A DNA stretch of 35,463 nucleotides from a candidate division WOR-3 bacterium (GTDB lineage Bacteria; Hydrothermota; Tepidihabitantia; Tepidihabitantales; Tepidihabitantaceae): positions 1 to 35,463 of the forward strand of contig JAFGRF010000326.1 in the NCBI GenBank assembly GCA_016935295.1, written 5' to 3'. Below, one piece after another: positions 6,390-19,563 of this stretch (position 1 is its first letter; each line of letters begins with the position of its first letter). Both the position numbers and the translations under genes were made by a program. The notes beneath the pieces are model-generated. The model worked only from the letters and a program-made list of their open reading frames with translations, was not told the DNA's origin and searched no databases.

Positions 6390-6428
6390 TGTCTCCCGCG
6401 AGAGACGCCGAGTCTCCCAAAGGAGACA
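6390..6428 (+). promoter_or_regulatory. paired 18-bp palindromes, putative enhancer (UAS) for the bEBP
   Basis: TGTCTCCCGCGAGAGACG (6390-6407) and AGTCTCCCAAAGGAGACA (6411-6428), 21 bp centre to centre. The pair starts 24 bp after the activator stop codon. Confidence 0.6.
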
Positions 6429-6557
6429 ATACGATCCAGTGTGACATTCCCCTCAAGCAGAAACGCAGCACGGCATCCAACCGGCTGCAGGCATACCTGA
6501 CCGAGCAGCGCTCCCGGCACAGCGTGAAAACGCGGACGGCCGCTCCAACTACCCTTA

Positions 6558-6573
6558 TGGCATGATTGGTGCA
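6558..6573 (+). promoter_or_regulatory. sigma54 (-24/-12) promoter
   Basis: TGGCAT-GATTG-GTGCA with correct GG-N10-GC spacing. It lies ~90 nt upstream of the radical SAM start. Confidence 0.65.
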
Positions 6574-6665
6574 GGGTCACATGAGGAATCCGAGATGGCC
6601 GGGCATTCCAATGGCCATGCTGTTGCTGGCCGGAAGCGCGGCGTCTCTAAGGGAGTACGACTGAA

Positions 6666-8525
6666 GTGAAAGACCTGTTGTCCGGGGTCACCCGTGCCTT
6701 GCTTGTCCAGCCGCGGTTCTCCATACGGAGCTTCTGGAACTACGCCGAAACGTGCCGGCTGACCGGCGCCAGGTACTCATCCCCACCGCTGGGGCTGATG
6801 ACCGTCGCCTCGCTGCTTCCTCAGCGCTGGCAGTTGAGGCTCGTCGACGAGAACGTCAGACCCCTTGCCCGCACCGACCTGGATTGGGCGGACATCGTGC
6901 TCACCGGGGGCATGCTGCCCCAGCAGGCGGCCACGCTCGCGGTCATGGAGAGGGCGCACGCAGCAGGCAAGCCGGTCGTGCTGGGCGGGCCCGACCCTTC
7001 CCAGCAGCCGGGCATCTACCGGGACGCCGACTTCCTGGTTGCCGGTGAGGGGGAAATCACCATACCATCGTTCCTCGCCGACCTTGACCGGCACGCCAAG
7101 TCGGGCAGCTACCGCTCTTCCGAACGGGCGGACATGAGCCGGGCCGTGGTGCCACGGTTCGACCTCGTGAACTTCCGGGACTATCTGGAGGTGAACGTCC
7201 AGTTCTCGCGCGGGTGTCCTTTCAACTGCGAGTTCTGCGACGTCATCGAGCTGTTCGGCCGCCGCCCCCGAACCAAGGAAACCGGGCAGGTTCTCACCGA
7301 ACTCCAGCGACTGTACGACCTTGGGTACCGCGGTCACGTGAACTTCGTCGACGACAATCTCATCGGCAACAAGTCGAGAACACGGGACCTGCTCGCCGCG
7401 GTTGCCGAGTGGAACCGTTGGCACAAGTACCCTTTCTTCTTCAGCACCGAGGCGTCAATCAACCTCGCTCGGGACCCGGAGTTGCTGAACCTGATGCGGG
7501 ATTGCGACTTCCGATACGTGTTCGTAGGCATCGAAAGCCCGGACCAACGGGCACTGGACCGGGCCGGGAAAGTCCAGAATCTGAACGTCTCGGCCCCGGA
7601 CGCCGTCAGGACCATTGCTTCCTACGGCATCATGGTCCACGGCGGTTTCATCCTGGGGATGGACGGCGAGCCGCCCGACGTCGCGCGCAATCTCATTGAG
7701 TTGATCGACGATGCCGGCATCTGCATGGCCATGGTCGGCACGCTCTACGCTCTTCCGAACACTCAACTCGAGCGACGACTGCAGCGGGAAGGCCGGCTCT
7801 TCCGCCGAACGGCAGTCGACCAGGCTGGAGCCATAGATCAGATTACCAGCGGCCTGAACTTCGTCACCGAGAGGCCGCGCGCCGACGTGCTCGGCGACCA
7901 GGCAGACGTGCTGCGCCACATCTACGACCCGGCCCGGTTCTACAAGACGCTCACTAAGGTAGCAACCCGCCTGAAGCCGGCGTACAAGCACCGTGTCGGG
8001 CTCCGCGAGGCGCTGCGGCTGGCCCTGGGATTTGCCAGGCTCTCGGCCAAGGCCGGGTTCAGCCGGCAGACCGGCCTGCTCTACTGGAGGGCATTGCTGC
8101 GGGTGCTCGCAAAGAACCCGGCCGCGATTGATGTCGTCGCCAACATGGCGGCGATTTACCTCCACTTCGCCAGACAATCACGGCACGTAGTCGGTGCGCT
8201 CGACGCAGCGGCGGAGCACGTTCGAGCGTTCGGGGAGAAACGCCACAACGCGCTGATGACCGCAGGCATGCCCCCGGTCGAAGCCGGTACGAGCGCCACC
8301 GACGAGCCCGATTTCCGCCGCGCTCGACCGCCGGGACGAGTTCGTCATCCTCGGCCAGTTGTTGCAGCAACCTCGCCATTCGACCCGATGTCGTCAACTG
8401 CCGGACGTACACTGGCCTCCACGTCCGGCAGTAGTGCGACCCCGCCAGTCTATGCCGGCGGTATCCTCGTACGCAGTATTGAGCCAGAAGGAGACATGTA
8501 TGTTGAATCCTTCAGGTCGTTATGA
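6666..8525 (+). CDS. B12-binding radical SAM protein (DUF4070-type); the C-terminal ~100 codons read into an ompA-like remnant
   Basis: GTG start after AAGGGAG. N-terminal cobalamin-binding-like region (PPLGLMTVASLLP...IVLTGGM). CPFNCEFCDV CxxxCxxC cluster (7215-7238). The tail from ~8200 is homologous to the ompA 3-prime end. Confidence 0.8.
   Translation: MKDLLSGVTRALLVQPRFSIRSFWNYAETCRLTGARYSSPPLGLMTVASLLPQRWQLRLVDENVRPLARTDLDWADIVLTGGMLPQQAATLAVMERAHAAGKPVVLGGPDPSQQPGIYRDADFLVAGEGEITIPSFLADLDRHAKSGSYRSSERADMSRAVVPRFDLVNFRDYLEVNVQFSRGCPFNCEFCDVIELFGRRPRTKETGQVLTELQRLYDLGYRGHVNFVDDNLIGNKSRTRDLLAAVAEWNRWHKYPFFFSTEASINLARDPELLNLMRDCDFRYVFVGIESPDQRALDRAGKVQNLNVSAPDAVRTIASYGIMVHGGFILGMDGEPPDVARNLIELIDDAGICMAMVGTLYALPNTQLERRLQREGRLFRRTAVDQAGAIDQITSGLNFVTERPRADVLGDQADVLRHIYDPARFYKTLTKVATRLKPAYKHRVGLREALRLALGFARLSAKAGFSRQTGLLYWRALLRVLAKNPAAIDVVANMAAIYLHFARQSRHVVGALDAAAEHVRAFGEKRHNALMTAGMPPVEAGTSATDEPDFRRARPPGRVRHPRPVVAATSPFDPMSSTAGRTLASTSGSSATPPVYAGGILVRSIEPEGDMYVESFRSL
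8200..8358 (+). pseudogene. remnant of the 3-prime end of an ompA-family gene, embedded in the radical SAM ORF tail
   Basis: The DNA ...gccaccgacgagcccgatttccgccgcgctcgaccgccgggacgagttcgtcatcctcggccag aligns to ...gccaccaacgagaccgattccggccgcgcgctcaaccgccgggttgagttcgtcatcctcggacag (22715-22780) with an indel. It encodes LDRRDEFVILGQ in a shifted frame. Confidence 0.6.
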
Positions 8526-8778
8526 CAGCAACGGCCGCGCCGGAGGTGGCAGATACGGTCGCTCCTCAGAGGAGGCCCGCACGCCGGTCCAGACGGATAG
8601 GGCCAGCGAATCAGGCCCGCCGGCGAACGGCGCTACTGGCTGGTCCCAATCGGCCCTGACGCACTGGAATGCGATGCAGAGAGGACGGGATCGCGAAGCC
8701 CGCACTTGGGGTGACGGAGCGGACAGCATACGAGATGGCCAGAAGAGCAGAGAAGCGAACGCTGAAGGGGACCCTTGA
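8500..8778 (+). CDS. hypothetical R/G-rich small protein (uncertain)
   Basis: ATG 8500 lies 5 nt after AAGGAG. Translation MLNPSGRYDSNGRAGGGRYGRSSEE... is low complexity. It could instead be a non-coding scar between remnants. Confidence 0.2.
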   Translation: MLNPSGRYDSNGRAGGGRYGRSSEEARTPVQTDRASESGPPANGATGWSQSALTHWNAMQRGRDREARTWGDGADSIRDGQKSREANAEGDP

Positions 8779-8950
8779 ACGCGCTGAGCGCGAGGCGGTA
8801 GAACGAGCAATGACGCAGGCGCAGAACAACGTTGCCGAGGCGGCCGCTATGCTGGGTATCGCGTGTCCCAGCCTCTACCGGATCACAGAGCGCCACGGGA
8901 TCGGCTCTCCGTCTCACACTCAGAACAAGGGCAACTCTCCACCGCAGTGA
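8762..8950 (+). pseudogene. orphan copy of the bEBP C-terminal Fis-type HTH (3-prime gene fragment)
   Basis: GTLERAEREAVERAMTQAQNNVAEAAAMLGIACPSLYRITERHGIGSP compares with GTLKEALERAEREAVERVLVQTNHNVAEAAAILGIVRPSLYRIIKRYGIASP at the end of 4732-6366. DNA similarity is obvious. No AAA+ domain lies upstream. Confidence 0.7.
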
Positions 8951-8958
8951 TCGCGACT

Positions 8959-8997
8959 TGTCTCCCTTGGGAGAATGGCTGTCTCCTCGGGGAGACA
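8959..8997 (+). promoter_or_regulatory. paired 18-bp palindromes (UAS)
   Basis: TGTCTCCCTTGGGAGAAT (8959-8976) and TGTCTCCTCGGGGAGACA (8980-8997), 21-bp phasing. The pair starts 9 bp after the HTH-fragment stop. Confidence 0.6.
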
Positions 8998-9050
8998 ACG
9001 CCGGCCATAGCGCCCTGCCAACTGGCTCGGAACGTTGCCCGACACTACCC

Positions 9051-9066
9051 TGGCACGTATCCTGCT
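9051..9066 (+). promoter_or_regulatory. sigma54 promoter
   Basis: TGGCAC-GTATC-CTGCT, 55 bp downstream of the UAS pair. Confidence 0.6.
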
Positions 9067-9310
9067 TTGGGAATGGTGGGTTACATAGAACCCAAGGGAA
9101 CGGCAACCTATGTTGCCATTGCCTCCGGCAACCAAACGGGCCCACAGCCGGTTGTCGTGACGGTTGCGGAAAGCCGGTGCGCCCGGACCCGTAGCCGACA
9201 TTGGTCGGAAGCTGCCGGGATAGCGCACCAGTCCCCTTTCCCGGCAGCTACCGTCCGCAGAGCAGAACGGGTCCAGCGCGCGCAGAAACACGAACAACAA
9301 TGGGAGAGAA

Positions 9311-9532
9311 ATGAAGATAGTCAGAACCATTCAGAAACCGGCCGGCATCCTCTACAGCCCCGCTACCGGCCTGATGGTGATGGAGTTCGCCGACCGGGGC
9401 CGTTACATCTACCACGATGTACCCAAGAGCATCTATGACGTCCTCAAGTGTGCGCCCGCTCACGTGCATGCCCAGTTCGTCAATAACGCCGGGCACCACT
9501 TTTCAGTCATCGATGGCATAGAAACGTACTGA
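9311..9532 (+). CDS. KTSC-domain protein
   Basis: 73 aa. ILYSPATGLMVMEFADRGRYIYHDVPKSIYDVL carries the central YxY..VP signature of the KTSC domain. Confidence 0.65.
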   Translation: MKIVRTIQKPAGILYSPATGLMVMEFADRGRYIYHDVPKSIYDVLKCAPAHVHAQFVNNAGHHFSVIDGIETY

Positions 9533-9607
9533 GGGCCGCTCCGCCGCGTCCGGCTGAGGCGCCATGCTGCGCCGCCGAAGTACGCGGGAGACGGCGGCCT
9601 TGGTTGG

Positions 9608-9622
9608 TGGCACGCTTCGTGC
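9608..9622 (+). promoter_or_regulatory. sigma54 promoter
   Basis: TGGCAC-GCTTC-GTGC, ~115 nt upstream of the lipoprotein start. Confidence 0.55.
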
Positions 9623-9738
9623 CCATAACAGACCATGGCGATGTGCAACGCCACGACTCTAGAAGACTGTGCCGGCTGCAACTCAAGCCCAGCGAGGCTT
9701 CCCCTGTCAGCCGGTCAACGCAAGAAAGGAAGATCCGT

Positions 9739-10500
9739 ATGAAGTATCTATCGACAACACTGGGAGCGCTGCTGCTTCTGGTCATTTCGTGCAATCAACC
9801 GGTCAGTCTCGTGATGCCGACGGTCAGCTACACGCCGGTTGACGACGGCGCGACGCTCCGCCTTACGTGGACCATGGTTGAAAAGGCTACCGGGTATACA
9901 GTGTACGTTGATGGCGTCCCGCATTCGATCATTTCCGGGATTTACTCCTACGACGTGTCGTCTCCGGCCAAGCTGATCCAGGTCTCGGCGGTCGCGAAAT
10001 CAAGTGAAAGTGATAAGTGGAGCCTTACGACAACAGTCAAGAAGACCAGCAACGTCGCGGTCTATTCGATGGCAGATTCGCAGCAGATCAACCACGCATT
10101 CTACTTCGATGCGACCGGTACGGCAATAGCGATTCCGATGACACAGGCTTCGGATGTTGATTTCGTGCTCGATACCACCCAGACTGCAGGTGCCATCCAG
10201 TTGCGTTCGCCCAATTCGTATGACCCGGTCTACAACACCAAGAGCAACTCGTCTGCCGCCACGAGCGTAACGAATCTGAATGACCTCACGATTGCTCCCG
10301 CGACCGGGGCGGATTACAGCCCGGCGCGCACGATTTCCGAGAGTTCGGTCTACGCCCTATGGCTGGATCCCAGCAACGACGGCTGGTCGGCCGAAGACCA
10401 TTTCGCCAAGATCAAAGTCGAAGCTCTCTCGGGTACGTCGGTGACGCTTACGACGGAATACCAGACGGTCCCCGGTCTCCGCTGGCTGATATCGGACTAG
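9739..10500 (+). CDS. lipoprotein with an FN3-like N-terminal domain, function unknown
   Basis: Internal ATG 9739 after AAGGAAG. Lipobox LLLLVISC. GATLRLTWTMVEKATGYTVYVDG is FN3-like. Codon third positions are visibly more AT-rich than in neighbouring genes. Confidence 0.7.
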   Translation: MKYLSTTLGALLLLVISCNQPVSLVMPTVSYTPVDDGATLRLTWTMVEKATGYTVYVDGVPHSIISGIYSYDVSSPAKLIQVSAVAKSSESDKWSLTTTVKKTSNVAVYSMADSQQINHAFYFDATGTAIAIPMTQASDVDFVLDTTQTAGAIQLRSPNSYDPVYNTKSNSSAATSVTNLNDLTIAPATGADYSPARTISESSVYALWLDPSNDGWSAEDHFAKIKVEALSGTSVTLTTEYQTVPGLRWLISD

Positions 10501-10531
10501 GGATTCTGAACGAAGCAGCAACCGCCTGCTG

Positions 10532-10558
10532 CGGCGGCGGCTGACGGAGCCGCCGCCG
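10532..10558 (+). terminator. GC-rich hairpin downstream of the lipoprotein gene
   Basis: CGGCGGCGGCT-gacgg-AGCCGCCGCCG (11-bp stem). No U-tail. Confidence 0.4.
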
Positions 10559-10616
10559 AGGCAGTTATGCCCGACGCATGGTAGGCAATCGACGATGCTC
10601 TCTCCCTATCGCCTCC

Positions 10617-10631
10617 TGGCACGAAAGCTGC
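10617..10631 (+). promoter_or_regulatory. sigma54 promoter
   Basis: TGGCAC-GAAAG-CTGC. The predicted TSS is ~20 nt before ATG 10664, with AAGGAG in between. Confidence 0.6.
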
Positions 10632-10663
10632 GTCACCTCAAGCAAACAAAAAGGAGATCGCTG

Positions 10664-11278
10664 ATGGAGAAGGTCGTGTTTGAGCTCGTGAAGCGCGATG
10701 GCCGGCGCGAAGCGTACCACCCGCAGAAGCTTGTGCGGTCACTCCTGCGAGCCGGTCTGGCGCCCCGCATGCTGGTCGAGACCGTCGCCAAGATCCGACC
10801 CTGGCCGGGCCTTGATACCGACTCTCTGCGCACATTGGTCGAGTACGCACTTTCGCTCCGGCAGCCAAGCGCGGCGCACCGCTACGCTACCACCCGCAGT
10901 CTTGTCGCTCGCTCGTCCGAGCAGTCAGCATCCGGCTGGGCCTGCATGAACCCGGAGACGGTGCGCAGGCTGGGTCTGAGACACGGCGACGCAGTCTGGC
11001 TGTGCCAGGAGCAGACGCCGGCGCCGTTCAGCATTGACAGCCGCGCGGACGTCGAGCGCGGCCAGGCCTGGCTCAACCCTCGGGAGATGGCCGCGATGGA
11101 GATAAGAGACGGGACCAAGCTGGCGGCCTCCAGCGTCTTTCACGACGGCTCGGCACCGACCGAGGATCGCCCGTACCGTGGCGGCGCCGGTGTGACCGCC
11201 CAGCCGCCGTCCGGGACGGCAGGACCTGTATTACTCTACGCTCGGGCCTCATCGCCGCCCAGCATGGATGCGGACTAG
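10664..11278 (+). CDS. ATP-cone domain protein with a CDC48_N/VatN-like double-psi beta-barrel
   Basis: Start moved to ATG 10664 (AAGGAG SD). VVFELVKRDGRREAYHPQKLVRSLLRAG is ATP-cone-like. NPETVRRLGLRHGDAVWL...GQAWLNPREMAAMEIRDGTKL is the barrel-like part. The tail looks disordered. Confidence 0.65.
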   Translation: MEKVVFELVKRDGRREAYHPQKLVRSLLRAGLAPRMLVETVAKIRPWPGLDTDSLRTLVEYALSLRQPSAAHRYATTRSLVARSSEQSASGWACMNPETVRRLGLRHGDAVWLCQEQTPAPFSIDSRADVERGQAWLNPREMAAMEIRDGTKLAASSVFHDGSAPTEDRPYRGGAGVTAQPPSGTAGPVLLYARASSPPSMDAD

Positions 11279-11918
11279 TACCGTCGGAATCTGCAAAACA
11301 AGACGACCTGAGGCTTCCACGCCCCAAGACATGAAAGTCGGCCCAGCGCCTCGGGTCGGCCTCCTGCCAGTGGACTGGGTACGGTGGTTCCTCCAGTATC
11401 GGTGACACCCACAACGAGCCATTTCGGGCGGGCGTGCAGGCGGTTCTCGACAATCTGCATGTAGTGGTGTGGATTGAGGCTTTAGCCTTGATGCTGGTGA
11501 CTGACACCCCCGCCTGGAGGACTACACCCCATGTCGTTCAGGAAGCCGTTCAAACCGTTACGTCGTATATCGTTTGGAGAGTAGTCTCGACCGCCGTACG
11601 CCGAAGAGCTTCCGTCGTAGTCTCCCCTGCTACGCAAACTGCTGCGGGGTCGGCTACCTCCTCGGCCATGCGCCAAACCGTCCGACCCGCAATCCAACCC
11701 GTTACCCCGCAGGCAACGTAGGCCGCAATTCCTCAGTTCGTCTGAGACACTGCGGAGCCAGGTGTCCTGCACATCACACCCGGAGTCATGTCATCAATCG
11801 TGTCCCGAGACACGCCCTCGGTACGATGCCCGCTCCACACGGAATCTGAACCCCGATGTGTGCAGCAGGGACCAGAATCATCTCGACTCGCCCGGGCAAC
11901 CGTCAGCACGGTCCGGTG

Positions 11919-12122
11919 TTACCAGTTCAGTCCGCCAGCGCCATTGCGCGCATTTGCTGAGTTGCCGCCCGTGCAACCACGCTCTAAAAGGGGACTGCCG
12001 CCATTCTCGCAATACTCTAGGGCAGACGAACCTGAACCGCAGTTTGCCCCAATGCCGGTCTGAGCATCGCGCAGGCTAACCGCGCGCGGGGCCTCGTACT
12101 TCGGTCTAGAAGCAGCTTTCAT
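11919..12122 (-). CDS. 67-aa Cys/Gly/Asn-rich peptide, candidate RiPP precursor
   Basis: Strong SD (AAAGGAG, 7 nt before the ATG). Sequence MKAASRPKYEAPRAVSLRDAQTGIGANCGSGSSALEYCENGGSPLLERGCTGGNSANARNGAGGLNW. The leader-like YxxPxxxxL segment is followed by a 3-Cys G/S/N-rich core. Confidence 0.45.
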   Translation of the reverse strand: MKAASRPKYEAPRAVSLRDAQTGIGANCGSGSSALEYCENGGSPLLERGCTGGNSANARNGAGGLNW

Positions 12123-12253
12123 ATCAACACTCCTTTTGACTTCACGTTTTGCCGACTTCCGAGGTCGGCGAGAATCCGGTCAACTTTCGCAAACCCCATG
12201 CAGTACAGGTCCGAGCTGATGGGAAACGTCACGACGAGGCCGCTGCCGCCGAA

Positions 12254-12499
12254 TCAGACTCGCCTAAGCAGCACCGGACCCCGGTTGAGCTTGTTGAGCT
12301 TGTTGTAGCCTGACCACTCGCTCCAGGGCGTCAGGTCTGATGCCGGAACCAGTCCCAGAAACAGGCCCACTGGGAGGACGGGGAATAGCGACTCCACACC
12401 AAACGAGTTCCGGACTCTCGCCATCACGCCCGGACACCGGTGCCCCGCGCCAGCCATCCGCCGCTCTGTTCTACGTAACGATGCGTGGTGAAACTCCAT
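12254..12499 (-). pseudogene. fragment related to the C-terminal half of the small OMP at 18954-19454
   Basis: VMARVRNSFGVESLFPVLPVGLFLGLVPASDLTP compares with MRIGVRVPFGLEYVFASVPIGLFLEVVPTFDLAG. The upstream part seems broken across several frames: a signal-like MKYVPALMIGFLAKPVASPLSG-stop begins at 12750. Confidence 0.35.
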
Positions 12500-12763
12500 C
12501 AGGGTCGTAGTCGTCTCTCCTGCCGGGTTTCCGGCGTCGCCGGCTGGTACTTCGAAGGGACTCTCGGTTCACGCCTCGTGAGCCGGACCGGTAGCCTGGG
12601 AGTGTGAGAGTTGGCCGGTTCGGCCCAGTAGAGCATCACCTCAGGCTTCCCCGGGCCAAGTCTGATAGCTGACCTCACGGCTTCATCCGCTCAGTGGGGA
12701 AGCGACAGGTTTCGCGAGGAAGCCGATCATCAGCGCTGGGACGTACTTCATGAACCAGCCGAG

Positions 12764-12779
12764 TGCAACCTGCGTGCCA
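12764..12779 (-). promoter_or_regulatory. sigma54 promoter (minus strand)
   Basis: The reverse complement reads TGGCAC-GCAGG-TTGCA, a perfect consensus. It points leftward toward 12750-11919. Confidence 0.7.
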
Positions 12780-12963
12780 CGACCAGTGGCGCCCGGTCGA
12801 CGGGGTGTTTCGCGGGCCCTGCCGGGTGGTTCGGGCGGACCGGTACCGGGCGCGCCGCCCTACAGGGTGGTCTCTAGTTCCGGCCCGACTTGCCAGGCAC
12901 GCTGGAAACCCGAAGATGAATCGGACGTCGGGCACGGTTTGCAGGGGCAGCTCCGACCGACGT

Positions 12964-13002
12964 AGTCTCCCTGAGGAGACAGTCATTCTCCCCGGGATAC
13001 AG
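12964..13002 (-). promoter_or_regulatory. paired palindromes (UAS) in inverted orientation
   Basis: AGTCTCCCTGAGGAGACA (12964-12981) and ATTCTCCCCGGGATACAG (12985-13002). The reverse complement closely matches the pair at 8959-8997. Confidence 0.55.
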
Positions 13003-13227
13003 ACACCCCATTGCTCATCAGACAAGAACGTGGACCGCCCTGGAAGGGCTATCAGACGAGGAACAGAACGAGGTTATGGAGCCATCGCCATCAAGGCAAC
13101 CTATGCCCCACATGCAACATCCTAAGCTATGGCAGTTCCCGCTCCCGCGCGAGCCAAGAATTGTCTGCCTCAGACTGCATGTCCCTCCACAGATGCAATC
13201 ATGGTACCGCCCCACAAGGCCGTGACT

Positions 13228-13266
13228 TGTCTCCTTCGGGAGAATCGGTGTCTCTTCAGGGAGACC
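13228..13266 (+). promoter_or_regulatory. paired palindromes (UAS)
   Basis: TGTCTCCTTCGGGAGAAT (13228-13245) and TGTCTCTTCAGGGAGACC (13249-13266). The flank gacTTGTCTCC is identical to that at 8956. Confidence 0.6.
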
Positions 13267-13402
13267 TCGCCGGGAGCAGCCCGGCGTCCGGGGCGCATCC
13301 GGGCCACGCTCAGACCACAGCCAATCCACATCTTCGCTTGGTACCGCCTTGTCCTGCGTAGTTCTGGTTTGGACGGGAACGGCATGTGCGCGTACGTCCT
13401 TC

Positions 13403-13418
13403 TGGCACGGCAAGTGCA
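13403..13418 (+). promoter_or_regulatory. sigma54 promoter
   Basis: TGGCAC-GGCAA-GTGCA. The predicted leader to ATG 13488 is ~60 nt. Confidence 0.7.
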
Positions 13419-13487
13419 GTGTGCTAGGTTAAGGTCGAACGGAAGCTGCGATCACAACCGCTGGCAACGTAACTGTGAGGATAAACT

Positions 13488-14186
13488 ATGATAAGGCTCA
13501 CAAAGCGCGATGGAACTCAGGACGGGTTCTTGCGCAGCAAGGTTGAGGAATCCTTGCGACGGGCCGGCGCATCCGATGATGTCATCAGTGGCACGTTGCA
13601 GCGCGTGACCCCGACCGATGGTGAAAGTACCGCGTCGTTCCGCAACCGGATAGTAGCAGAACTGCGGAGCCGGTCGCCCGAGACGGCCCGGCGCTACGAG
13701 AGCAGCCGGCGCCTCGACTTAGCCCGGACCGACAGCTTGGTCGAGGGCACGGCCTTGGTCAGCCCGTACACCCTGCACTACTACGGCTGGGAGCCGAACG
13801 ACGCTGTCAACGTCCAGCGCGGCAATAGGACGGTATCGCTGAAAGTCGATCAGTCAGCCACCGCCGACGTGCACATGATGTGTTGCAGCCCACGAACGCT
13901 CAAGATTGTGGGCGCATCCGAGGGAGCCAGAGTCACTCTGACCCAGAATCGCCAGCCAGAACGGGAACTTCCATTGCTCGGCCAAGCGCCGGTCGCCACT
14001 CCGACATCATGCGCGGCTTCGCCAAACGCCTCGGCCCAGCTCTGGTCGGACTCCGAAACGAACAGGGAAGGCTCTGGCGCTGACGGAAGGGCATCTACTC
14101 ACGGTGCAGCAGCGCTTCGCTCGCTTGACACCAACTCATCCGCGCCTAACGTCTCTACGGAGGCAAGGTCAAGTCCGGCCCTATGA
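13488..14186 (+). CDS. ATP-cone domain protein, paralog of 10664-11278
   Basis: MIRLTKRDGTQDGFLRSKVEESLRRAG is ATP-cone-like. The ARRYESSRRL boundary and following beta-rich domain are arranged as in the paralog. S/A/T-rich tail. Confidence 0.65.
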   Translation: MIRLTKRDGTQDGFLRSKVEESLRRAGASDDVISGTLQRVTPTDGESTASFRNRIVAELRSRSPETARRYESSRRLDLARTDSLVEGTALVSPYTLHYYGWEPNDAVNVQRGNRTVSLKVDQSATADVHMMCCSPRTLKIVGASEGARVTLTQNRQPERELPLLGQAPVATPTSCAASPNASAQLWSDSETNREGSGADGRASTHGAAALRSLDTNSSAPNVSTEARSSPAL

Positions 14187-14219
14187 CAGCAAGTTCTGGC
14201 AACCAATGGAGGTAGCCTC

Positions 14220-14651
14220 ATGACAGGATACGGAAAACGACTACTGACAATCCCCACGCTCTTGTTGAGCCTCACGCTGCTCGTCGCAGCGACCGCAGTC
14301 GGCTGCGGGAAGAAGAGTGCTCCCGCGCCACAAGCGGGCGCGACTCACGTAGAGCAGGCTCAGTCCGACGACCCGGGGTCGGTAAGTTATGACGAGGGCA
14401 GTCGCAGGTTAATTATCACCTTTCGGAGCGGCAGCGTCTACGAGTACACCGATGTGCCTCGTGACGTGTACTTGGGAATCTCGGCGGCTCCCGCCAAAGG
14501 CGTGTACCTCAATACCTACGTCAAGGACCGATACCCGTTCCGGGTAACGACATCCGGGCCGGCTGGTTCGACGGTCATTCAGATTCAGGGAGGAGAGTCG
14601 AAGCCGGCAAAGCCGCCGCAGTCTTCACAGGGACGCGGCAGGGGCCGGTAG
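14220..14651 (+). CDS. KTSC-domain lipoprotein
   Basis: GGAGG SD. Lipobox LVAATAVGC. SVSYDEGSRRLIITFRSGSVYEYTDVPRDVYLGI is the KTSC YxY..VP core. Likely co-transcribed with 13488-14186. Confidence 0.7.
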   Translation: MTGYGKRLLTIPTLLLSLTLLVAATAVGCGKKSAPAPQAGATHVEQAQSDDPGSVSYDEGSRRLIITFRSGSVYEYTDVPRDVYLGISAAPAKGVYLNTYVKDRYPFRVTTSGPAGSTVIQIQGGESKPAKPPQSSQGRGRGR

Positions 14652-14768
14652 GTACGGCAACGACCGCGCCTGACGCCGTAGGAAGGCTGGTTGACCGCTT
14701 CGACCTTGGTCACAAAACCTCCCCCTCCGGCGTGGTATGGTAATACGTCATAGTATGAGGAGAACACT

Positions 14769-15011
14769 ATCAGTACAACAAAGGTCGCAATCACGATTGA
14801 GCGTGACCTGCTCGTCCGTCTGGACCGGCTGGTCAGAAGCCGGAGATTCCCGAATCGGAGCCGGGCCGTGCAGGAGGCGATAAAGGAGAAGGTCGCGCGG
14901 CTTGAGCGCAGCCGGCTGACTGAGGAGTGTGATAAACTCTACCGGGTGTCGGAACGGAAGATGGCCGATGAGGGTCTATCGGAGGAGGCGGCGCTGTGGC
15001 CCGAGTATTGA
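14769..15011 (+). CDS. ribbon-helix-helix antitoxin (MazE/CopG-like); start codon unresolved
   Basis: The open frame after TAG 14751 encodes (I)STTKVAITIERDLLVRLDRLVRSRRFPNRSRAVQEAIKEKV... There is no ATG/GTG/TTG before the RHH strand. GAGGAG (14757-14762) lies 6 nt before ATC 14769. The stop overlaps the mazF start region. Confidence 0.55.
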   Translation: MSTTKVAITIERDLLVRLDRLVRSRRFPNRSRAVQEAIKEKVARLERSRLTEECDKLYRVSERKMADEGLSEEAALWPEY

Positions 15012-15334
15012 GGGGTGACGTTGTCCGGGCCGAGTTGAGCCCGACCCGAGGTCGCGGACAGGAAGGCCGGCGTCCGGTCCTGGTGCTGAGCCAGGAAGTC
15101 TTCAACGAACGTTCCGGCACCGTGATCGCAGCGGCCTTGACCACTCAACCTCGGGCGGCCGGCTTTCCGCTCACGCTAGAGCTATCCGTGCCCGAGCTAC
15201 CAAGGAAGTCATATGTGAAGATCGGTCAGGTGCGTACGCTCTCGACCAAGTGGCTGGGCCGGCGGATTGGCAGGGTCTCGCCGGAGGAACTTCGCCTCGT
15301 CATCGAGGGCCTGAACGAGATAATCGGCGAGTAA
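14996..15334 (+). CDS. mazF: MazF/PemK-family endoribonuclease toxin
   Basis: LRGDVVRAELSPTRGRGQEGRRPVLVLSQEVFNERSGTVIAAALTT... is typical PemK. The start is GTG 14996 or TTG 15008. Confidence 0.8.
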   Translation: MARVLRGDVVRAELSPTRGRGQEGRRPVLVLSQEVFNERSGTVIAAALTTQPRAAGFPLTLELSVPELPRKSYVKIGQVRTLSTKWLGRRIGRVSPEELRLVIEGLNEIIGE

Positions 15335-15359
15335 CGTCGGCATGGGTGTCGTCGGCCAG

Positions 15360-15684
15360 AAGCACAACCCTTCGTGCTGAAGCAGCACGGGATGCGGACT
15401 TCCTGCACTGCGACCTGTTGCTTCATACCGGGAGCCTCTTGCCCGCGCTGATCTGCTTCCTGCCGCTCTACGCGGGCGCAGTGGCTCGCGCCAGGCTCGC
15501 GAACGGGGCGGACAGTCCGATGAAAGTGGGGCTCAGGGTTCCGTTCGGGGCGGAGTATGTCCTCCCCATCATTCCGCTTGGTGTCTTCTTTGAGCTAGCT
15601 CCAATCCTCGACTTCGCTCCGGGAGTCGGCTTCAACGGCAACGGCGCAGTCGGGGTTCGCTACGACCTCGGCCCACGCAGTTGA
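15360..15684 (+). pseudogene. 5-prime-truncated paralog of the small OMP gene
   Basis: FLHCDLLLHTGSLLPALICFLPLYAGAVARARLANGADSPMKVGLRVPFGAEYVLPIIPLGVFFELAPILDF aligns to FHGDVLWHTNSLLQSSEDGYLPLYIGVGARVVMGDNHDYPDMRIGVRVPFGLEYVFASVPIGLFLEVVPTFDL. The signal peptide and first strands are missing. It begins right after mazF. Confidence 0.6.
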
Positions 15685-15821
15685 AAGCCGTGGGGAGAAC
15701 TGCCCTTCTTTCAATGAGTTGAAGGGGCAGCGCCGATTGCGATGAATCAGTTGACAGACTGGGGGCAGGGTCTCGGACTGACATCAGTGCGGGTGAATGA
15801 CTGCTGACAAAGGAGATCCAA

Positions 15822-16031
15822 ATGGTGAAGTCCTTCAGAATTGGCGTCACATCGCTGGCCCTGATGGTACTGCTTCTCGGACTGTCGGGCTGTAGACGAC
15901 TGGGCTCGGCAGAGCGCGCCGGCAGGAAGATCGACCAAACGGTTGAGAAAGTCGGGCAGCAGGTTGAGAAGGCCGGACAGCAGATCGATTCGGCCGCAAA
16001 GAAAATCCGGAAGGAAGTCCAGGGAAAGTAG
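15822..16031 (+). CDS. small lipoprotein with helical VEKxGQQ repeats
   Basis: AAAGGAG SD. Lipobox LLGLSGC. DQTVEKVGQQVEKAGQQIDSAAKKIRKEV. Confidence 0.6.
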   Translation: MVKSFRIGVTSLALMVLLLGLSGCRRLGSAERAGRKIDQTVEKVGQQVEKAGQQIDSAAKKIRKEVQGK

Positions 16032-16186
16032 CCTTGGCAAAGCAAGCAGATTGAAGCAACTGATGGTGGAGCACAATGAACGACCGGCAAACGGCCGTCA
16101 ACGAGATCTAGCAGACGCCGGTTGGTCTGCAGCCGGAGGTCACCGACTGCACCCGTGAGTGTATCGTGTTATCGGATGAGAAAGGA

Positions 16187-16498
16187 ATGAATGTGAACGA
16201 AGAACGCCAACGCTACAGCGACTACCTGAGTGAGTTCAATGGACTCAAAGGGGACCTTCATTTTGAGGGATCCGAAGCAGGGGGCTATCCGATAGTCGAA
16301 TTCAGACTCAAACCTGACGTCGAGGGCAGAGAGGCAGCATTCGTGCTCGCCAGCGTTCAAGAGAATTTCGTCGTCTTCGAAGGGCTAAGGGACATGAGGG
16401 TTAAGTCGGTCGCAGTGCCTTTGCCGAGCCTCATCGTAGTGAAGGAGGCACCGATGGACACTAGCTTGGCTGATCTGGTTCCACCTTCCGAGCGATAA
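16187..16498 (+). CDS. hypothetical protein
   Basis: ATG 16187 after GAGAAAGGA. 103 aa with no recognisable motif. Confidence 0.4.
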   Translation: MNVNEERQRYSDYLSEFNGLKGDLHFEGSEAGGYPIVEFRLKPDVEGREAAFVLASVQENFVVFEGLRDMRVKSVAVPLPSLIVVKEAPMDTSLADLVPPSER

Positions 16499-16536
16499 TG
16501 GGCCGCGGTCAACACCCCGGGTGAAACGCCGGGACT

Positions 16537-16554
16537 AGTCTCCCGTCGGAGACA
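16537..16554 (+). promoter_or_regulatory. single 18-bp palindrome (UAS-like)
   Basis: AGTCTCCCGTCGGAGACA, preceded by gggacTAG as at the ends of the HTH copies. Confidence 0.45.
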
Positions 16555-16617
16555 ACTCCGGCCGTGGTGCCGCTTGACATCACGTAGCCGAGAACGTTGA
16601 GGTCTGCTGCCCAGCTC

Positions 16618-16632
16618 TGGCCGCGAATGCGC
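16618..16632 (+). promoter_or_regulatory. weaker sigma54 promoter candidate
   Basis: TGGCCG-CGAAT-GCGC(AGT). GG-N10-GC spacing is kept, and it shares the GCGCAGT tail with the other copies. Confidence 0.4.
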
Positions 16633-16735
16633 AGTGTCTGCGACGGCAGCAGTTGGAGCCGTCTCGGTCAAGACAACAAGTACTCGAGCTGTCACGTCGT
16701 TAGCTACATCGGGGTGAGTGTCACGGAAAAGGAAG

Positions 16736-16773
16736 GCTGTCGGCGGCTTGGAGGCTCTCTAGCCGCCGACAGC
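16736..16773 (+). other. perfect 13-bp-stem hairpin ~90 nt downstream of the predicted sigma54 start
   Basis: GCTGTCGGCGGCT-tggaggctctct-AGCCGCCGACAGC. Confidence 0.5.
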
Positions 16774-17025
16774 TCTCGTCAGACCGAGCAGAGCCGCGAC
16801 CCGCAAACCTCCGCAGCCCCTCAGCACGGTCGCCAGAGCAACAAGCCCGGATCCGGCAACCTGCCTTCAGTGTCCTCAGTGCAGCAATCGTGCCAGTCCG
16901 CCCTCCGGACGAGTCTCGAGCACCGCTGCTGGGCAAACCGTACTGCATTCCATCGGTACAAGCACTGGCTGGTTGCCAATGGTCAGCAATCGACGCGCCA
17001 AGACCAGTTGCCCGTCAGGGACAAC

Positions 17026-17043
17026 GTGTCTCTCTGAAGATAC
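17026..17043 (+). promoter_or_regulatory. single degenerate palindrome (UAS-like)
   Basis: TGTCTCTCTGAAGATACA, the same variant as at 17777 and 18579. Confidence 0.4.
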
Positions 17044-17127
17044 AACCATCGCGCCGCTATGACAGGTCAGTCGTCGCCGGACTGCAGGCACAGAGGCGCA
17101 ACCCAGCAACCGCGACCCGGTCTGCAC

Positions 17128-17143
17128 TGGCACGCGACGTGCA
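17128..17143 (+). promoter_or_regulatory. sigma54 promoter
   Basis: TGGCAC-GCGAC-GTGCA(GT). Confidence 0.65.
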
Positions 17144-17155
17144 GTTACACGAGAC

Positions 17156-17404
17156 ATGAAGGACCATGACTTGTTCGCGCCACCAACCACAGCGACGTCG
17201 CCACTAGTGGTCCGGCACCCTGTCTCAGTGCCCGCAGTCTGGCAAGGCAGCCTGCACACAGATGTCTCGACCTCGATTGCCGCGGGAACGGTCATGGCCG
17301 GCACCGAATCGAGCGAGCCTGTTGGGGATCGACGTCCTGTCCAATTAGCATCCGAGAAGCGTTCGGCTGTCCCGGATGGCATTCTCCGGTCGAGGCGCTC
17401 ATGA
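17156..17404 (+). CDS. hypothetical 82-aa ORF, possibly leaderless (uncertain)
   Basis: The ATG lies ~2 nt after the predicted sigma54 TSS. No recognisable domain. Confidence 0.2.
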   Translation: MKDHDLFAPPTTATSPLVVRHPVSVPAVWQGSLHTDVSTSIAAGTVMAGTESSEPVGDRRPVQLASEKRSAVPDGILRSRRS

Positions 17405-17755
17405 GGCTCGGATTCTACCCGCGGACCGTCCGTACGGGAAAAGCCGAGTCGGCGCCGGAATCAACGGAATCGGCAGCAACAACTGACACCAAGTCTCCCG
17501 ACCCCCGCCGAGACAGCGAGGCCGGCCGAGCGCCTCAGGCCGGCCTCGTCTGCCGATCCGACTCGCATGACCTGCCGTCCGGGACTCCATCGGACACTGA
17601 CGCGCCGGCCGCGACAAGATTGGTCAAGAGATCATATTGGACATGCGGCTGAGTCGAACCACTTCCAGACCCAAGAAGCTTTCGGACAGCGTTGGGCTCG
17701 ACCTGAGCCCCGCTGTCAGCAGTCAGAACCAACTGCGCCGGGGAGCGCGACCATC

Positions 17756-17794
17756 TGTCTCCCAACGGAGACCGCGTGTCTCTCTGTAGATACA
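17756..17794 (+). promoter_or_regulatory. paired palindromes (UAS)
   Basis: TGTCTCCCAACGGAGACC (17756-17773) and TGTCTCTCTGTAGATACA (17777-17794), 21-bp phasing. Confidence 0.6.
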
Positions 17795-17887
17795 ACCTCT
17801 CCCGCCCTTTGGTACGTAGAAGCGCACGGATTGCAGTCATGGAGGGGCGCAGGACATGTGATTCAACCAGCACGGCCCGATCCGGAC

Positions 17888-17903
17888 TGGCACGACAAGC
17901 GCC
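17888..17903 (+). promoter_or_regulatory. sigma54 promoter
   Basis: TGGCAC-GACAA-GCGCC, ~100 nt upstream of csbD. Confidence 0.6.
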
Positions 17904-18004
17904 CTGACAAGAGTCTAGAGTGAAGATAACAGCCGCGATGCGAACAACGTGGCGGCAGAGAGCGACCGATAGCGGTCAAGCCAAGAACCGACCGGAGGAA
18001 TCGA

Positions 18005-18184
18005 ATGAAATCGAGTACGCAGGACGAAGCGGAAGGCAAGCTCCACAAGGTGAAGGGTAGTATCACGGAGATTGCGGGGAAAGTCACCAAGAATCGCAAA
18101 CTGGTACGGAAAGGCAAGGCCGAGAAGAGAGCCGGCAAAGCACAGGAGAAGGTCGGCCAGGTGAAGAAGGCCCTTGGGAAATAG
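18005..18184 (+). CDS. csbD: CsbD-family stress protein (59 aa, below the ORF-track cutoff)
   Basis: GGAGG SD. MKSSTQDEAEGKLHKVKGSITEIAGKVTKNRKLVRKGKAEKRAGKAQEKVGQVKKALGK has the typical CsbD repeat pattern. Confidence 0.8.
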   Translation: MKSSTQDEAEGKLHKVKGSITEIAGKVTKNRKLVRKGKAEKRAGKAQEKVGQVKKALGK

Positions 18185-18323
18185 AACGAAGCCGCTCTGC
18201 ATTGCGCCCCGCAACTCCGAGCGAAACGCTGCGGCGCCAGCCAAGGTCCGGCCGATACAGCCGACGAAACAGGGACCGAGATGCGAAGTGAGACGAACCG
18301 GCACCGTGCCCAACGCTAGAACG

Positions 18324-18500
18324 GACGGCGCACTCCATGTTGCCTTGGAGCGCACGGAGCGCCGGGCGGTTGAGAAGGTACTTGCGCAGACAAATGGCAA
18401 CGTCGCCCAGGCGGCTGCCAGGTTGGGCATATTGCGTACGAGCCTCTACCGTATCATGAAGCGCTGCGGAATCGCTACTCCGTCAAGTGCCAGGGACTAG
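18324..18500 (+). pseudogene. second orphan copy of the bEBP C-terminal HTH
   Basis: DGALHVALERTERRAVEKVLAQTNGNVAQAAARLGILRTSLYRIMKRCGIATPSSARD-stop. There is no upstream AAA+ domain, and the frame overlaps the csbD end. Confidence 0.65.
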
Positions 18501-18578
18501 CCCTGTGTATCCTCGAATGTTACATGTCCCTGCGCCGCAATTGAATACGCGAGGCACTCTCGCCTTCCCAGTTCCATG

Positions 18579-18596
18579 TGTCTCTCTAGGGATACA
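18579..18596 (+). promoter_or_regulatory. single degenerate palindrome (UAS-like)
   Basis: TGTCTCTCTAGGGATACA. A weaker TGTATCC-N5-TGTTACA lies at 18506-18524. Confidence 0.4.
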
Positions 18597-18690
18597 TCTG
18601 TAATGCTGTCGCGACCGCTCGCGGGCACACGGACCGCAGTCTAAGAGGCGCGCTGGCCGCGCAAGACGAAGACCAACGCGAGGCCTTTCC

Positions 18691-18706
18691 AGGCACACAA
18701 GGTGCA
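18691..18706 (+). promoter_or_regulatory. sigma54 promoter
   Basis: AGGCAC-ACAAG-GTGCA(GT), ~240 nt upstream of the OMP start. Confidence 0.5.
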
Positions 18707-18953
18707 GTTGTCTAGCCTGGAAGGAAATGAGCAACGTGGGGGCGACAGCGCGAAGTATCTGCAATGCAGTACTACGTTCCACATAGCTGCTGTCGCGTTC
18801 GCGGATGATGGTCGCCCGATCATCCGAGGTCTGCACGGGGTCGGCGGCAGTCCGGTCAACTGTGACGCCTCCCGACCGGCGGCTTGCCGACCCCTCTGAA
18901 ATTGCCGGCAGGGAGTTGACAGGTAATAAGTAGATGACCGCAAAGGAGAAAAG

Positions 18954-19454
18954 ATGAACCGAAAAGTAGTGACCGCGCTTGCCATCGCAAGCATCTGCAT
19001 CGGTGTTGCCGTCGCCCGGCCTCAAGGCCTCGGCCTGGGTCTCATGGGTGGCAACCCTTCCGGGCTCAGCCTCAAGGTGTGGACCGGCCCCCACATGGCG
19101 ATCGACGGCGGGCTGGGCTACACCCTGTGGTACGGGCAGGCACTCAGCTTCCACGGGGACGTGCTGTGGCACACCAACAGCCTGCTGCAGTCGTCGGAGG
19201 ATGGCTATCTGCCGCTCTACATTGGCGTCGGCGCCCGCGTCGTGATGGGGGACAACCACGACTACCCGGACATGAGAATCGGGGTCCGGGTGCCGTTCGG
19301 GCTCGAGTACGTGTTTGCCAGCGTGCCAATCGGCCTGTTCCTGGAAGTGGTCCCCACATTTGACCTGGCTGGGGTACCGACGGACAGAAACTTGTTCGGT
19401 CCGCAGGGGTCAATCGGCTTCCGCTACTACTTCAGCGGGTCATCACAGGACTAG
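18954..19454 (+). CDS. small outer-membrane beta-barrel protein
   Basis: AAAGGAG SD. Signal peptide MNRKVVTALAIASICIGVAVA. Alternating beta-strand pattern, aromatic-rich C-terminal strand GSIGFRYYF. Confidence 0.7.
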   Translation: MNRKVVTALAIASICIGVAVARPQGLGLGLMGGNPSGLSLKVWTGPHMAIDGGLGYTLWYGQALSFHGDVLWHTNSLLQSSEDGYLPLYIGVGARVVMGDNHDYPDMRIGVRVPFGLEYVFASVPIGLFLEVVPTFDLAGVPTDRNLFGPQGSIGFRYYFSGSSQD

Positions 19455-19563
19455 CTACGGGCAGTGCACCTATGATGAGTGATATCGACGAGCAAGCCCG
19501 GCGCGCTGCCGGGACTTGCCCGTGGATAGCAGGCAAGTTCTAAATGTGAAAGGCAGGTAGAGT

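Follow-up and report, generated by a model that had tools for sequence, protein, structure and literature searches.

A predicted clustered sigma-54 regulon with its own activator and a possible KaiBC-linked input in a candidate division WOR-3 bacterium

We analysed a contig of 35,463 nucleotides from a candidate division WOR-3 bacterium (JAFGRF010000326.1, assembly GCA_016935295.1), hereafter called the window, in which a kaiC-kaiB gene pair is followed by the gene of a bacterial enhancer-binding protein (bEBP), that is, an activator of sigma-54 promoters, and then by an island dense in 18-bp palindromes and -24/-12 promoter motifs. Judged from sequence comparison, the whole locus is best explained as a clustered sigma-54 regulon with an activator of its own and a KaiBC-linked input, and we assign this reading a probability of about 0.62. 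The presence of a genuine bEBP/sigma-54 regulon appears very likely; for KaiBC as the input of this regulon we would put the odds at even. The sigma-54/enhancer interpretation had been put forward earlier from the letters of the window (the original prediction), and it is supported by the motifs, by their spacing and by a gene set that recurs in relatives.

The palindrome TGTCTCC-N4-GGAGACA, the predicted upstream activating sequence (UAS), occurs 12 times in the whole window when up to three mismatches are allowed, against 2.0 occurrences expected; this number was reached in 0 of 100 shuffles, and all 12 matches are confined to positions 6390-18596 (Table 1). The better consensus is TGTCTC-N6-GAGACA (18 bp), which takes in the sites ending in GATACA that the original prediction had set apart as a variant. 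To avoid circularity, the weight matrices for the palindrome and for the promoter were trained on related loci only and then used to scan the window. The palindrome matrix returned exactly twelve sites (6390, 6411, 8959, 8980, 12964, 13228, 13249, 16537, 17027, 17756, 17777 and 18579) with scores of 20.2-25.7 bits, whereas the runner-up had 11.3 bits and the maxima of 20 shuffles were 9.1-16.6. These sites are arranged as four tandem pairs, in each of which the sites lie exactly 21 bp (two helical turns) apart, and four single sites. Thirteen palindromes and five such pairs had been reported initially. Twelve and four of them, respectively, were recovered, and site 12985 was rejected on account of its 5-nt spacer and a matrix score below the null range, so that the supposed pair 12964/12985 drops out. 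The first pair does begin 24 bp past the stop codon of the activator gene, as had been noted. The ten loci compared contain 29 pairs of closely set palindromes, of which 26 have a spacing of exactly 21 bp and three one of 20 or 22 bp; the tandem pairs fit a conserved arrangement of a weak plus a strong site.

The promoter motif TGGCAC-N7-GC was likewise overrepresented in the window (12 matches against 1.9 expected, a count reached in 0 of 100 shuffles), and eight of the matches are TGGCACG sites between 9051 and 17902. With the promoter matrix we obtained 12 matches of at least 12 bits, compared with 0-6 in 20 shuffles. Ten sites are credible, at 12.5-23.9 bits, and rank in the order 17128, 13403, 18691, 16895(-), 9608, 10617, 12779(-), 9051, 6558 and 17888. 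By these scores, the ten sites agree with the -24/-12 pattern TGGCAC-N5-TTGCW, in which the GG and GC doublets are exactly 10 nt apart, and 16618 does not. Ten promoters had been listed at the outset: nine of them are confirmed by the matrix, and 16895(-) had been overlooked. The tenth, 16618, lies outside the top 25 matrix matches and its counterparts in the related locus L081 are degenerate; we rejected it as a credible promoter. Only seven of the ten listed sites read TGGCAC exactly, the others being TGGCAT (6558), TGGCCG (16618) and AGGCAC (18691).

Palindromes and promoters are also related in position. In the nine promoters measured, 63-216 bp separate the centre of the palindrome from the GG in the -24 element; a UAS lies at this distance upstream of 8 of the 10 credible promoters, and a credible promoter is found within 220 bp of 7 of the 8 palindrome loci. 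The UAS had been placed 55-190 bp upstream, and this upstream geometry holds, within the limits just given, at all credible promoters except two that are discussed below. The predicted 5' untranslated regions are 3-238 nt long. It had further been claimed that nearly every gene of the island has a sigma-54 promoter of its own, which is overstated, since none was found for the genes at 14220, 14754-15334 (mazEF), 15822 and 16187, and three promoters lack a convincing open reading frame (ORF). When the region upstream of the outer-membrane-protein (OMP)-like gene was aligned from six loci, neither GGCAC-N5-GTGCA nor the core of the palindrome varied, in contrast to the divergent flanks. Scans of the window for sigma-70 promoters and intrinsic terminators gave results at shuffle level only. 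A different palindrome, TGGCAA-N5-TTGCCA near the 3' ends of OmpA genes (2154/2170), was rejected as a promoter and is conserved coding sequence.

Full-length orthologs of the bEBP (72-83% identity) were found by protein search on the contigs L081, L082/L083, L084, L085 and L086. Their loci keep the order kaiC-kaiB-bEBP; the L085 contig begins inside the bEBP gene. The middle section of these loci is variable and the tail invariant, the latter consisting of an ORF with an HTH_8 domain only, the OMP-like gene, DUF5670, DUF883, a gene for a 122-aa protein and an OmpA-family gene. In the ortholog loci, the palindrome and the -24/-12 motif (TGGCAC-N5-(T/G)TGC) occur downstream of the bEBP gene only. 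The motifs, the 21-bp spacing and the gene order are kept in at least nine loci (L081, L082, L084, L085, L086, L089, L091, L092 and L093), and when GTDB genomes were scanned for the pattern of the UAS pair, we obtained WOR-3 UBA2258 (the L081 locus), four contigs of metagenome-assembled genomes rich in both motifs, and one chance match. A whole-bEBP search of GTDB genomes gave generic AAA+ matches only (36-54% identity, many phyla) and no orthologs, and an exact-sequence look-up of the window bEBP gave no match. As background for the motif and kaiBC counts we used 80 generic bEBP loci from this search: over the 1.19 Mb of these unrelated loci, the palindrome has a frequency of 0.18 per 10 kb, compared with about 10 per 10 kb here (about 55-fold rarer), and kaiC-kaiB is absent from all 80. 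In L086 (7863-11642), kaiC and the bEBP gene are each split into two ORFs in the ENA contig; these splits are probably frameshift errors of the long-read assembly and not real pseudogenes.

Binding of the palindromes by the bEBP is predicted from their co-localisation with its gene in every locus and from the uncompensated half-site variants described below. The DNA-binding domain is invariant across the clade, so that there is no covariation of protein and site to score. A distant receiver-type locus, L097, has one site, TGTCACCGACAAGAGACA (TGTCAC-N6-GAGACA), about 30 nt past the bEBP stop codon, which is essentially the same as the window palindrome.

The best match of the window KaiC in the PDB is R. 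sphaeroides KaiC (8DBA; E 7e-181, residues 24-574), including the C-terminal extension, and the region of the Ser-Ser phosphorylation site aligns with TDAGLSSLMD in this alignment. No KaiA domain was seen among the ORFs scanned. In the bEBP, Walker A (GESGVGK) and Walker B (DEI) are both intact. The genes kaiC, kaiB and bEBP form a conserved unit with the bEBP gene in third place: in the four PAS-type orthologs with upstream sequence, kaiC-kaiB always precedes the bEBP gene, whereas the three receiver-type loci compared lack the pair. Homologs of the N-terminal 229 aa of the bEBP (35-50% identity) are PAS-HisKA_3 kinases or PAS proteins in other phyla. Since both of those checked for their context, P0143 and P0130, sit directly 3' of kaiC-kaiB-kaiB, the PAS module of the bEBP type appears to be a recurrent KaiBC partner. 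A literature search gave no report tying KaiC to sigma-54, NtrC, RpoN/bEBP or WOR-3; a Myxococcus review mentions both separately.

The sister loci L093 and L094 have the same frame of OmpA, LEA_2, regulator and regulon, and the palindromes, their 21-bp pairing and the promoters are identical as well. The regulator of these loci carries a receiver domain on equivalent AAA+ and DNA-binding domains (75% identity), and kaiBC is absent. A PAS-type or a receiver-type protein thus fills one slot, between the LEA_2/OmpA genes and the regulon, and 0 of the loci examined have both. Because the sister loci combine a receiver-type regulator and the lack of kaiBC with an unchanged regulon, the input module appears to have been swapped while the output was retained, PAS/KaiBC and the receiver domain being interchangeable in evolution. 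L093 and L094 can be regarded as natural domain-swap controls.

It is from the conserved gene order, from the PAS module shared with kaiBC-adjacent kinases and from the receiver-type sister loci without kaiBC that we infer a KaiBC input. In the proposed mechanism, bEBP dimers would bind the palindromes through the HTH_8 domain, and tandem sites on one helix face would nucleate the AAA+ hexamer. The hexamer would loop to the closed complex of RNA polymerase and sigma-54 at the -24/-12 element, and ATP hydrolysis would open the promoter. KaiC and KaiB would act through the N-terminal coiled-coil/PAS module of the bEBP; the phosphorylation state of KaiC, reflecting elapsed time or energy state and read via KaiB and/or PAS, would gate the assembly of the AAA+ ring. 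The output would comprise the CsbD, KTSC, DUF5670, DUF883-like and ATP-cone proteins, lipoproteins, the OMP-like protein and the B12 radical SAM enzyme, as well as several noncoding RNAs and the HTH_8-only protein HTHb, the last feeding back negatively by competing for the palindromes. The most specific form of this proposal, a KaiBC timer wired directly to transcription, in which the state of KaiC gates the hexamer on phased enhancers and controls a stress/dormancy regulon with regulatory RNAs, a new leader RNA motif and decoy feedback, is tentative, and we would sooner doubt than accept it in full.

Several observations weigh against the locus being a self-sufficient sigma-54 regulon with a KaiBC input. 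No rpoN was found within the 35-kb window. Around the promoters 9608 and 10617, palindromes are lacking to a distance of 400 bp, and the matrix scan showed no weaker ones nearby; UAS 16537 is without a credible promoter. Several promoters face decayed or noncoding DNA, and the high density could in large part be debris, with the promoters 12779(-), 16618, 16895(-), 17128 and perhaps 6558 being relics and the functional regulon being reduced to a few operons, much as with other bEBPs. Signs of decay are indeed present. Compared with L081, substitutions in the ORFs that follow 12779(-), 16618 and 17128 are not enriched at third codon positions, and tblastx against more distant loci gave no coding signal for them. 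In the decayed region 3' of 12779(-), tblastn detected aa 95-139 of the OMP-like protein (4e-7) and, with an in-frame stop, aa 66-122 of the 122-aa protein (4e-6), and a truncated OMP-like copy (aa 66-158) lies at 15403-15663 (+). A mazEF pair is probably inserted within the island. L081 contains the cassette with the degenerate promoter 16618 three more times (at about 11665-11900, 13945-14200 and 16990-17290). The HTH_8-only ORF HTHa copies the bEBP 3' end beside a UAS pair; its recognition helix is altered (IACPSLYRITER), and it was seen only in the window arrangement. HTHa is probably a rearrangement scar from a duplicated bEBP 3' end plus UAS, and this duplication looks like the event by which a UAS pair and the weak promoter 6558 came to lie in front of the radical SAM gene.

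However, the promoters facing noncoding DNA have high scores (23.9 bits for 17128 and 19.3 bits for 16895(-)) and are kept together with their UAS in L081, L086, L091 and L092. The region 17140-17760, which has stops in all frames, is 82-83% identical in L091 and L092, similar to the neighbouring genes, and conservation of the approximately 600 nt after 17128 at this level fits functional RNAs better than drift. This stretch is a candidate long noncoding RNA or, alternatively, a long leader running into the csbD promoter region. The repeated cassette at 16520-16775, which the strong convergent promoter 16895(-) faces, might be a pair of small or antisense RNAs or else the decayed form of a unit of promoter and leader. 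We regard debris as a rather unlikely explanation for much of the density. The island grew by duplication of UAS-promoter cassettes, which accounts for part of it, some units probably being RNAs and some relics.

A second group of objections concerns the activator. Its sigma-54 contact loop (aa 307-312, nt 5650-5667) reads GAFTNA and not GAFTGA, the codon in question being AAC, compared with GGC in L081 and L082, a two-base change. The loop is GAFTGA or GSFTGA in 118 of 120 homologs, and GAFTNA was otherwise found only in P0005 (81% identical, on a different contig). Since substitutions at this glycine of the GAFTGA loop abolish activation in NtrC, the window copy of the bEBP may be weakened or inactive; it may also be that the variant is tolerated. 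Receiver-type bEBPs of the lineage have 75-79% identity over the AAA+ and DNA-binding domains and a nearly identical recognition helix, and they could serve the window sites. As to the input, we know of no system with physical contact between KaiBC and a PAS module, and the link from KaiBC to the activator proposed here comes from gene order and domain homology only. The regulon could consequently be real and yet mainly driven by a receiver-domain bEBP encoded elsewhere, in the way that the receiver-type bEBP of L093 drives the same UAS/promoter architecture; the GAFTNA protein would then be weak, inactive or modulatory, and the kaiBC adjacency uninformative. Against this stands the sharing of one slot by receiver-type and PAS-type proteins, never both in a locus, which indicates replacement and not coexistence. 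In addition, the PAS-type orthologs with a canonical GAFTGA loop (P0002, P0007 and P0008) keep the regulon, and the recurrence of GAFTNA in P0005 suggests that it may be tolerated. We consider control from elsewhere unlikely.

Finally, it is very improbable that the palindromes are RNA or DNA hairpins (terminators or REP-like repeats), even though all of them could fold into a 5-7 bp stem closed by a 4-nt loop and the loci 6390, 8959 and 18579 fall 9-79 bp past stop codons: only 13 of 149 arm positions off consensus are still Watson-Crick paired, the stem-breaking asymmetric half-sites GAGAAT (13 times) and GATACA (15 times) recur at orthologous positions, no T-tract follows the palindromes, the terminator scan found none at these sites, and the 21-bp phasing and the fixed distance to -24/-12 have no explanation under a hairpin model. 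As the arm changes are uncompensated and the asymmetric half-sites conserved, the palindromes fit sequence-specific half-site recognition by a protein and not a structural hairpin.

The second HTH_8-only gene, HTHb, belongs to the operon of promoter 17888, and its position is kept in L081, L082, L084, L085, L086 and L093. Its dN/dS of about 0.25-0.5 indicates purifying selection, and the recognition helix has an RTSLYR core that does not vary. On the simplest reading, HTHb is probably a competitor or decoy at the palindromes, providing negative feedback. Fis, a small HTH_8 protein, has reportedly been derived from the DNA-binding domain of NtrC (Morett and Bork 1998); HTHb resembles it in being a stand-alone HTH_8 protein clearly derived from a bEBP C-terminus. 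Unlike Fis, HTHb has its gene within the regulon of the activator from which it descends and shares the recognition helix of that activator, which suggests competition for sites rather than a general function in the nucleoid.

Between promoter 18691 and the OMP-like gene lies a region of about 240 nt with a conserved structured leader RNA. Its stems are P1 (CGACAGC/GCTGTCG), P2 (GGATGA/TCATCC) and P3 (GGGGYCGGCGGC/GCCGRCCCC), and the P3 loop contains an invariant GCCTCC (GCCUCC in the RNA; 18867-18872). A pattern scan of metagenomes brought the number of distinct copies to 15, and all of them begin 43-47 nt past the GG in a GGCAC-N5-GTGC promoter; the second copy on L085 precedes a different gene. 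The stems are nearly invariant in sequence, and compensatory changes are few. A search of Rfam gave no match over the whole window at the gathering threshold and none at E up to 1 over 6300-20800, which includes the leader and the noncoding units. The leader appears to be an undescribed conserved three-helix motif, and its GCCUCC could mask a ribosome-binding site.

Table 1 Predicted features of the window and copies of the leader RNA in related contigs
Feature	Position	Strand	Properties
kaiC	2587..4359	+	590 aa; Rhodobacter-type with C-terminal extension; Pfam KaiC ATPase PF06745 in two stretches, E 1e-103
kaiB	4356..4658	+	100 aa; Pfam PF07689, E 7e-27; start overlaps kaiC stop by 4 nt (ATGA); kept in L081, L082, L084, L086
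Sigma-54 activator (bEBP)	4732..6366	+	N-terminal coiled coil, PAS, AAA+, AAA_lid_14, HTH_8; Sigma54_activat PF00158, 1e-67
UAS pair 1	6390..6428		6390 + 6411, 21 bp apart; counterpart pair in L091
Weak -24/-12 promoter TGGCATGATTGGTGCAGG	6558..6575	+	14.1 bits; UAS 140-160 bp upstream; precedes B12-binding radical SAM gene
B12-binding radical SAM gene, DUF4070	6666..8525	+	Pfam, NCBIfam; ortholog after distal OmpA-family gene in L082, L084
HTHa, HTH_8 domain alone	8669..8950	+	about 75-77% DNA identity to bEBP 3' ends; abuts UAS pair 2
UAS pair 2	8959..8997		8959 + 8980; pattern and matrix
-24/-12 promoter TGGCACGTATCCTGCTTT	9051..9068	+	precedes KTSC gene 9311-9532; L081 ortholog 12311
-24/-12 promoter TGGCACGCTTCGTGCCCA	9608..9625	+	itself palindromic; precedes lipoprotein gene 9739-10500; kept in L081 at 12866
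-24/-12 promoter TGGCACGAAAGCTGCGTC	10617..10634	+	precedes ATP-cone gene 10664-11278
Decayed fused fragments of OMP-like and 122-aa genes	12150..12460	-	3' of promoter 12779(-)
-24/-12 promoter TGGCACGCAGGTTGCACT	12762..12779	-	L081 ortholog 16553(-)
Single UAS	12964..12981		194 bp upstream of promoter 12779(-)
UAS pair 3	13228..13266		13228 + 13249; pattern and matrix
-24/-12 promoter TGGCACGGCAAGTGCAGT	13403..13420	+	precedes ATP-cone-like paralog 13488-14186 and KTSC lipoprotein gene 14220-14651
Repeated cassette, about 230 nt	16520..16775	+	UAS 16537, decayed site 16618 (TGGCCGCGAATGCGCAGT), conserved core, hairpin GCTGTCGGCGGCT..AGCCGCCGACAGC (16736-16773)
-24/-12 promoter TGGCACGATTGCTGCACT	16878..16895	-	points at cassette hairpin, no ORF after it; orthologs L081 12025(-), L086 15296(-)
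Single UAS	17027..17044		common to divergent promoters 16895(-) and 17128(+)
Top-scoring -24/-12 promoter TGGCACGCGACGTGCAGT	17128..17145	+	followed by about 600 nt of conserved noncoding DNA (about 17153-17750)
UAS pair 4	17756..17794		17756 + 17777; pattern and matrix
Weak -24/-12 promoter TGGCACGACAAGCGCCCT	17888..17905	+	12.5 bits; precedes csbD 18005-18184 and HTHb
HTHb, HTH_8 domain alone	18174..18500	+	HTH_8 E 1e-10; about 75% DNA identity to bEBP 3' end
Single UAS TGTCTCTCTAGGGATACA	18579..18596		25.7 bits; kept in six loci
-24/-12 promoter AGGCACACAAGGTGCAGT	18691..18708	+	GGCAC-N5-GTGCA invariant in six orthologous loci; precedes all 15 leader-RNA copies
Conserved structured leader RNA	18737..18898	+	P1 18742-18749/18789-18796; P2 18803-18809/18819-18825; P3 18837-18848/18886-18894
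Other leader copies	L081 20373; L082 14172; L084 5218; L085 3590, 4659; L086 18318		also L109, L111, L133, L147, L165, L199, L200, L203
Tail operon	18954..20685	+	OMP-like gene (166 aa), two DUF5670 genes, DUF883-like gene, 122-aa gene; order kept in all relatives

The predicted regulon resembles the nif regulon of Klebsiella and Azotobacter, in which one dedicated bEBP has TGT...ACA sites about 100-200 bp upstream of many clustered -24/-12 promoters. It differs from it in the site (TGT-N10-ACA for NifA versus TGT-N12-ACA here, often as 21-bp tandem pairs), in density (10 promoters per 12 kb versus about 8 per 24 kb, i.e. about 2-3 times higher), in input (PAS and KaiBC versus GAF and NifL) and in cargo (small stress and envelope proteins and RNAs versus nitrogenase). 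The TyrR boxes, TGTAAA-N6-TTTACA, are likewise 18-bp palindromes of the form 6-N6-6 with outer TGT/ACA; TyrR and PhhR are PAS-containing regulators of the bEBP family, and TyrR binds adjacent strong and weak boxes cooperatively. In contrast to our predicted sites, with CTC as the inner bases, the TyrR boxes have AAA, and E. coli TyrR acts on sigma-70 promoters. With NtrC at glnAp2 the locus would share tandem dimer sites on one helix face, an AAA+ hexamer, looping, ATP-driven opening and the HTH_8 (Fis-type) domain, whereas the window bEBP has no receiver domain and a GAFTNA loop, and nitrogen-metabolism genes are absent. Tandem-site bEBP enhancers have been reviewed (PMC7057263, PMC5095919).

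Among Kai systems, the closest likeness is to the KaiBC of R. sphaeroides, a KaiA-independent hourglass (8DBA), whose KaiC is similar over its full length; in the window, kaiB overlaps kaiC. The cyanobacterial pathway from KaiABC through SasA/CikA to RpaA also couples a Kai oscillator to a DNA-binding transcription factor over a regulon, but KaiA, SasA, CikA and RpaA are missing here, and the output step would take place in one protein via a sigma-54 AAA+ activator. To our knowledge, sigma-54 is not known in cyanobacteria. The association with stress genes recalls the stress-linked KaiC homologs of Pseudomonas and Legionella. In Pseudomonas, KaiC affects the resistance to osmotic and oxidative stress, and the conserved neighbours of non-cyanobacterial kaiBC are kinases and single-domain response regulators without DNA-binding output (bioRxiv 10.1101/2022.01.26.477890). 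Unlike in Rhodobacter, Pseudomonas and Legionella, the PAS module here forms one protein with the AAA+ and DNA-binding domains of a sigma-54 activator, whose predicted target sites are adjacent. For the RNA outputs, the LuxO/sigma-54/Qrr system of Vibrio offers a parallel in which a bEBP with upstream sites drives several sigma-54 promoters for noncoding RNAs (PMC4878744), although the RNAs predicted here (the element at 16.5-16.9 kb and the transcript of about 600 nt from 17128) are unrelated in sequence. A bEBP regulon as such is of a known kind; new are the proposed KaiBC-PAS input that can be swapped with a receiver domain, the paralog reduced to the DNA-binding domain and the predicted RNA outputs.

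Homologs of KaiB and KaiC are widespread beyond cyanobacteria and their mutants have stress phenotypes; their route to gene expression would gain a model here. Kai parts, a PAS-fused activator, probable sites, about ten promoters and sister-locus controls are found together in one small locus, and because all parts lie in one locus the question of the Kai output becomes testable. If true, our reading would define the output of a Kai system at the level of DNA for the first time outside cyanobacteria, and sigma-54 activators would gain a new class of input. With respect to sigma-54, the locus is of interest for the unusual density and the phasing of its enhancers and promoters, for the GAFTNA loop as a natural variant, for HTHb as a likely decoy and for predicted sigma-54-driven RNAs from an uncultivated phylum. 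Should the KaiBC link prove incidental, the locus would be reduced to a bEBP regulon of the ordinary type, if a very compact one.

The genes of the island itself follow each other, 3' of the radical SAM gene, in the order HTHa, KTSC gene, lipoprotein gene and ATP-cone gene; after 2.2 kb without intact genes come the ATP-cone-like paralog, the KTSC lipoprotein gene, mazEF, the truncated OMP-like copy, csbD, HTHb and the tail operon. The csbD product has a CsbD match in Pfam, and the OMP-like product (166 aa) has the look of an outer-membrane protein and no family match. CsbD, DUF883 (ElaB/YqjD-like), LEA_2 and OsmC are typical general-stress proteins; LEA_2 and OsmC were found in relatives. The mazEF-type pair at 14754-15334 (RHH antitoxin and PemK/MazF toxin), amid the genes of the regulon, lacks a sigma-54 promoter. 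The relatives examined do not have this pair, which was probably inserted.

Paralogous CarboxypepD_reg/OmpA genes at 265-2238 and 20768-22786 flank the island, and the same is seen in L081, L093 and L094. Farther downstream, a 439-aa ORF (23058-24377) with N6_N4_Mtase DNA-methylase and methyltransferase domains is followed by three ORFs without a family match. On the minus strand at 11919-12125, there is a 68-aa ORF rich in Cys and Gly, with a strong ribosome-binding site (AAAAGGAG-N7-ATG) and the protein sequence MKAASRPKYEAPRAVSL...NCGSGSSALEYCENGGSPLLERGCTGGNSA...; this and the other unknown ORFs had no match in Pfam or NCBIfam. In L081, a 67-aa gene has been called at the matching place. 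The 68-aa product resembles precursors of ribosomally synthesised and post-translationally modified peptides, and the B12 radical SAM gene is located in the same island.

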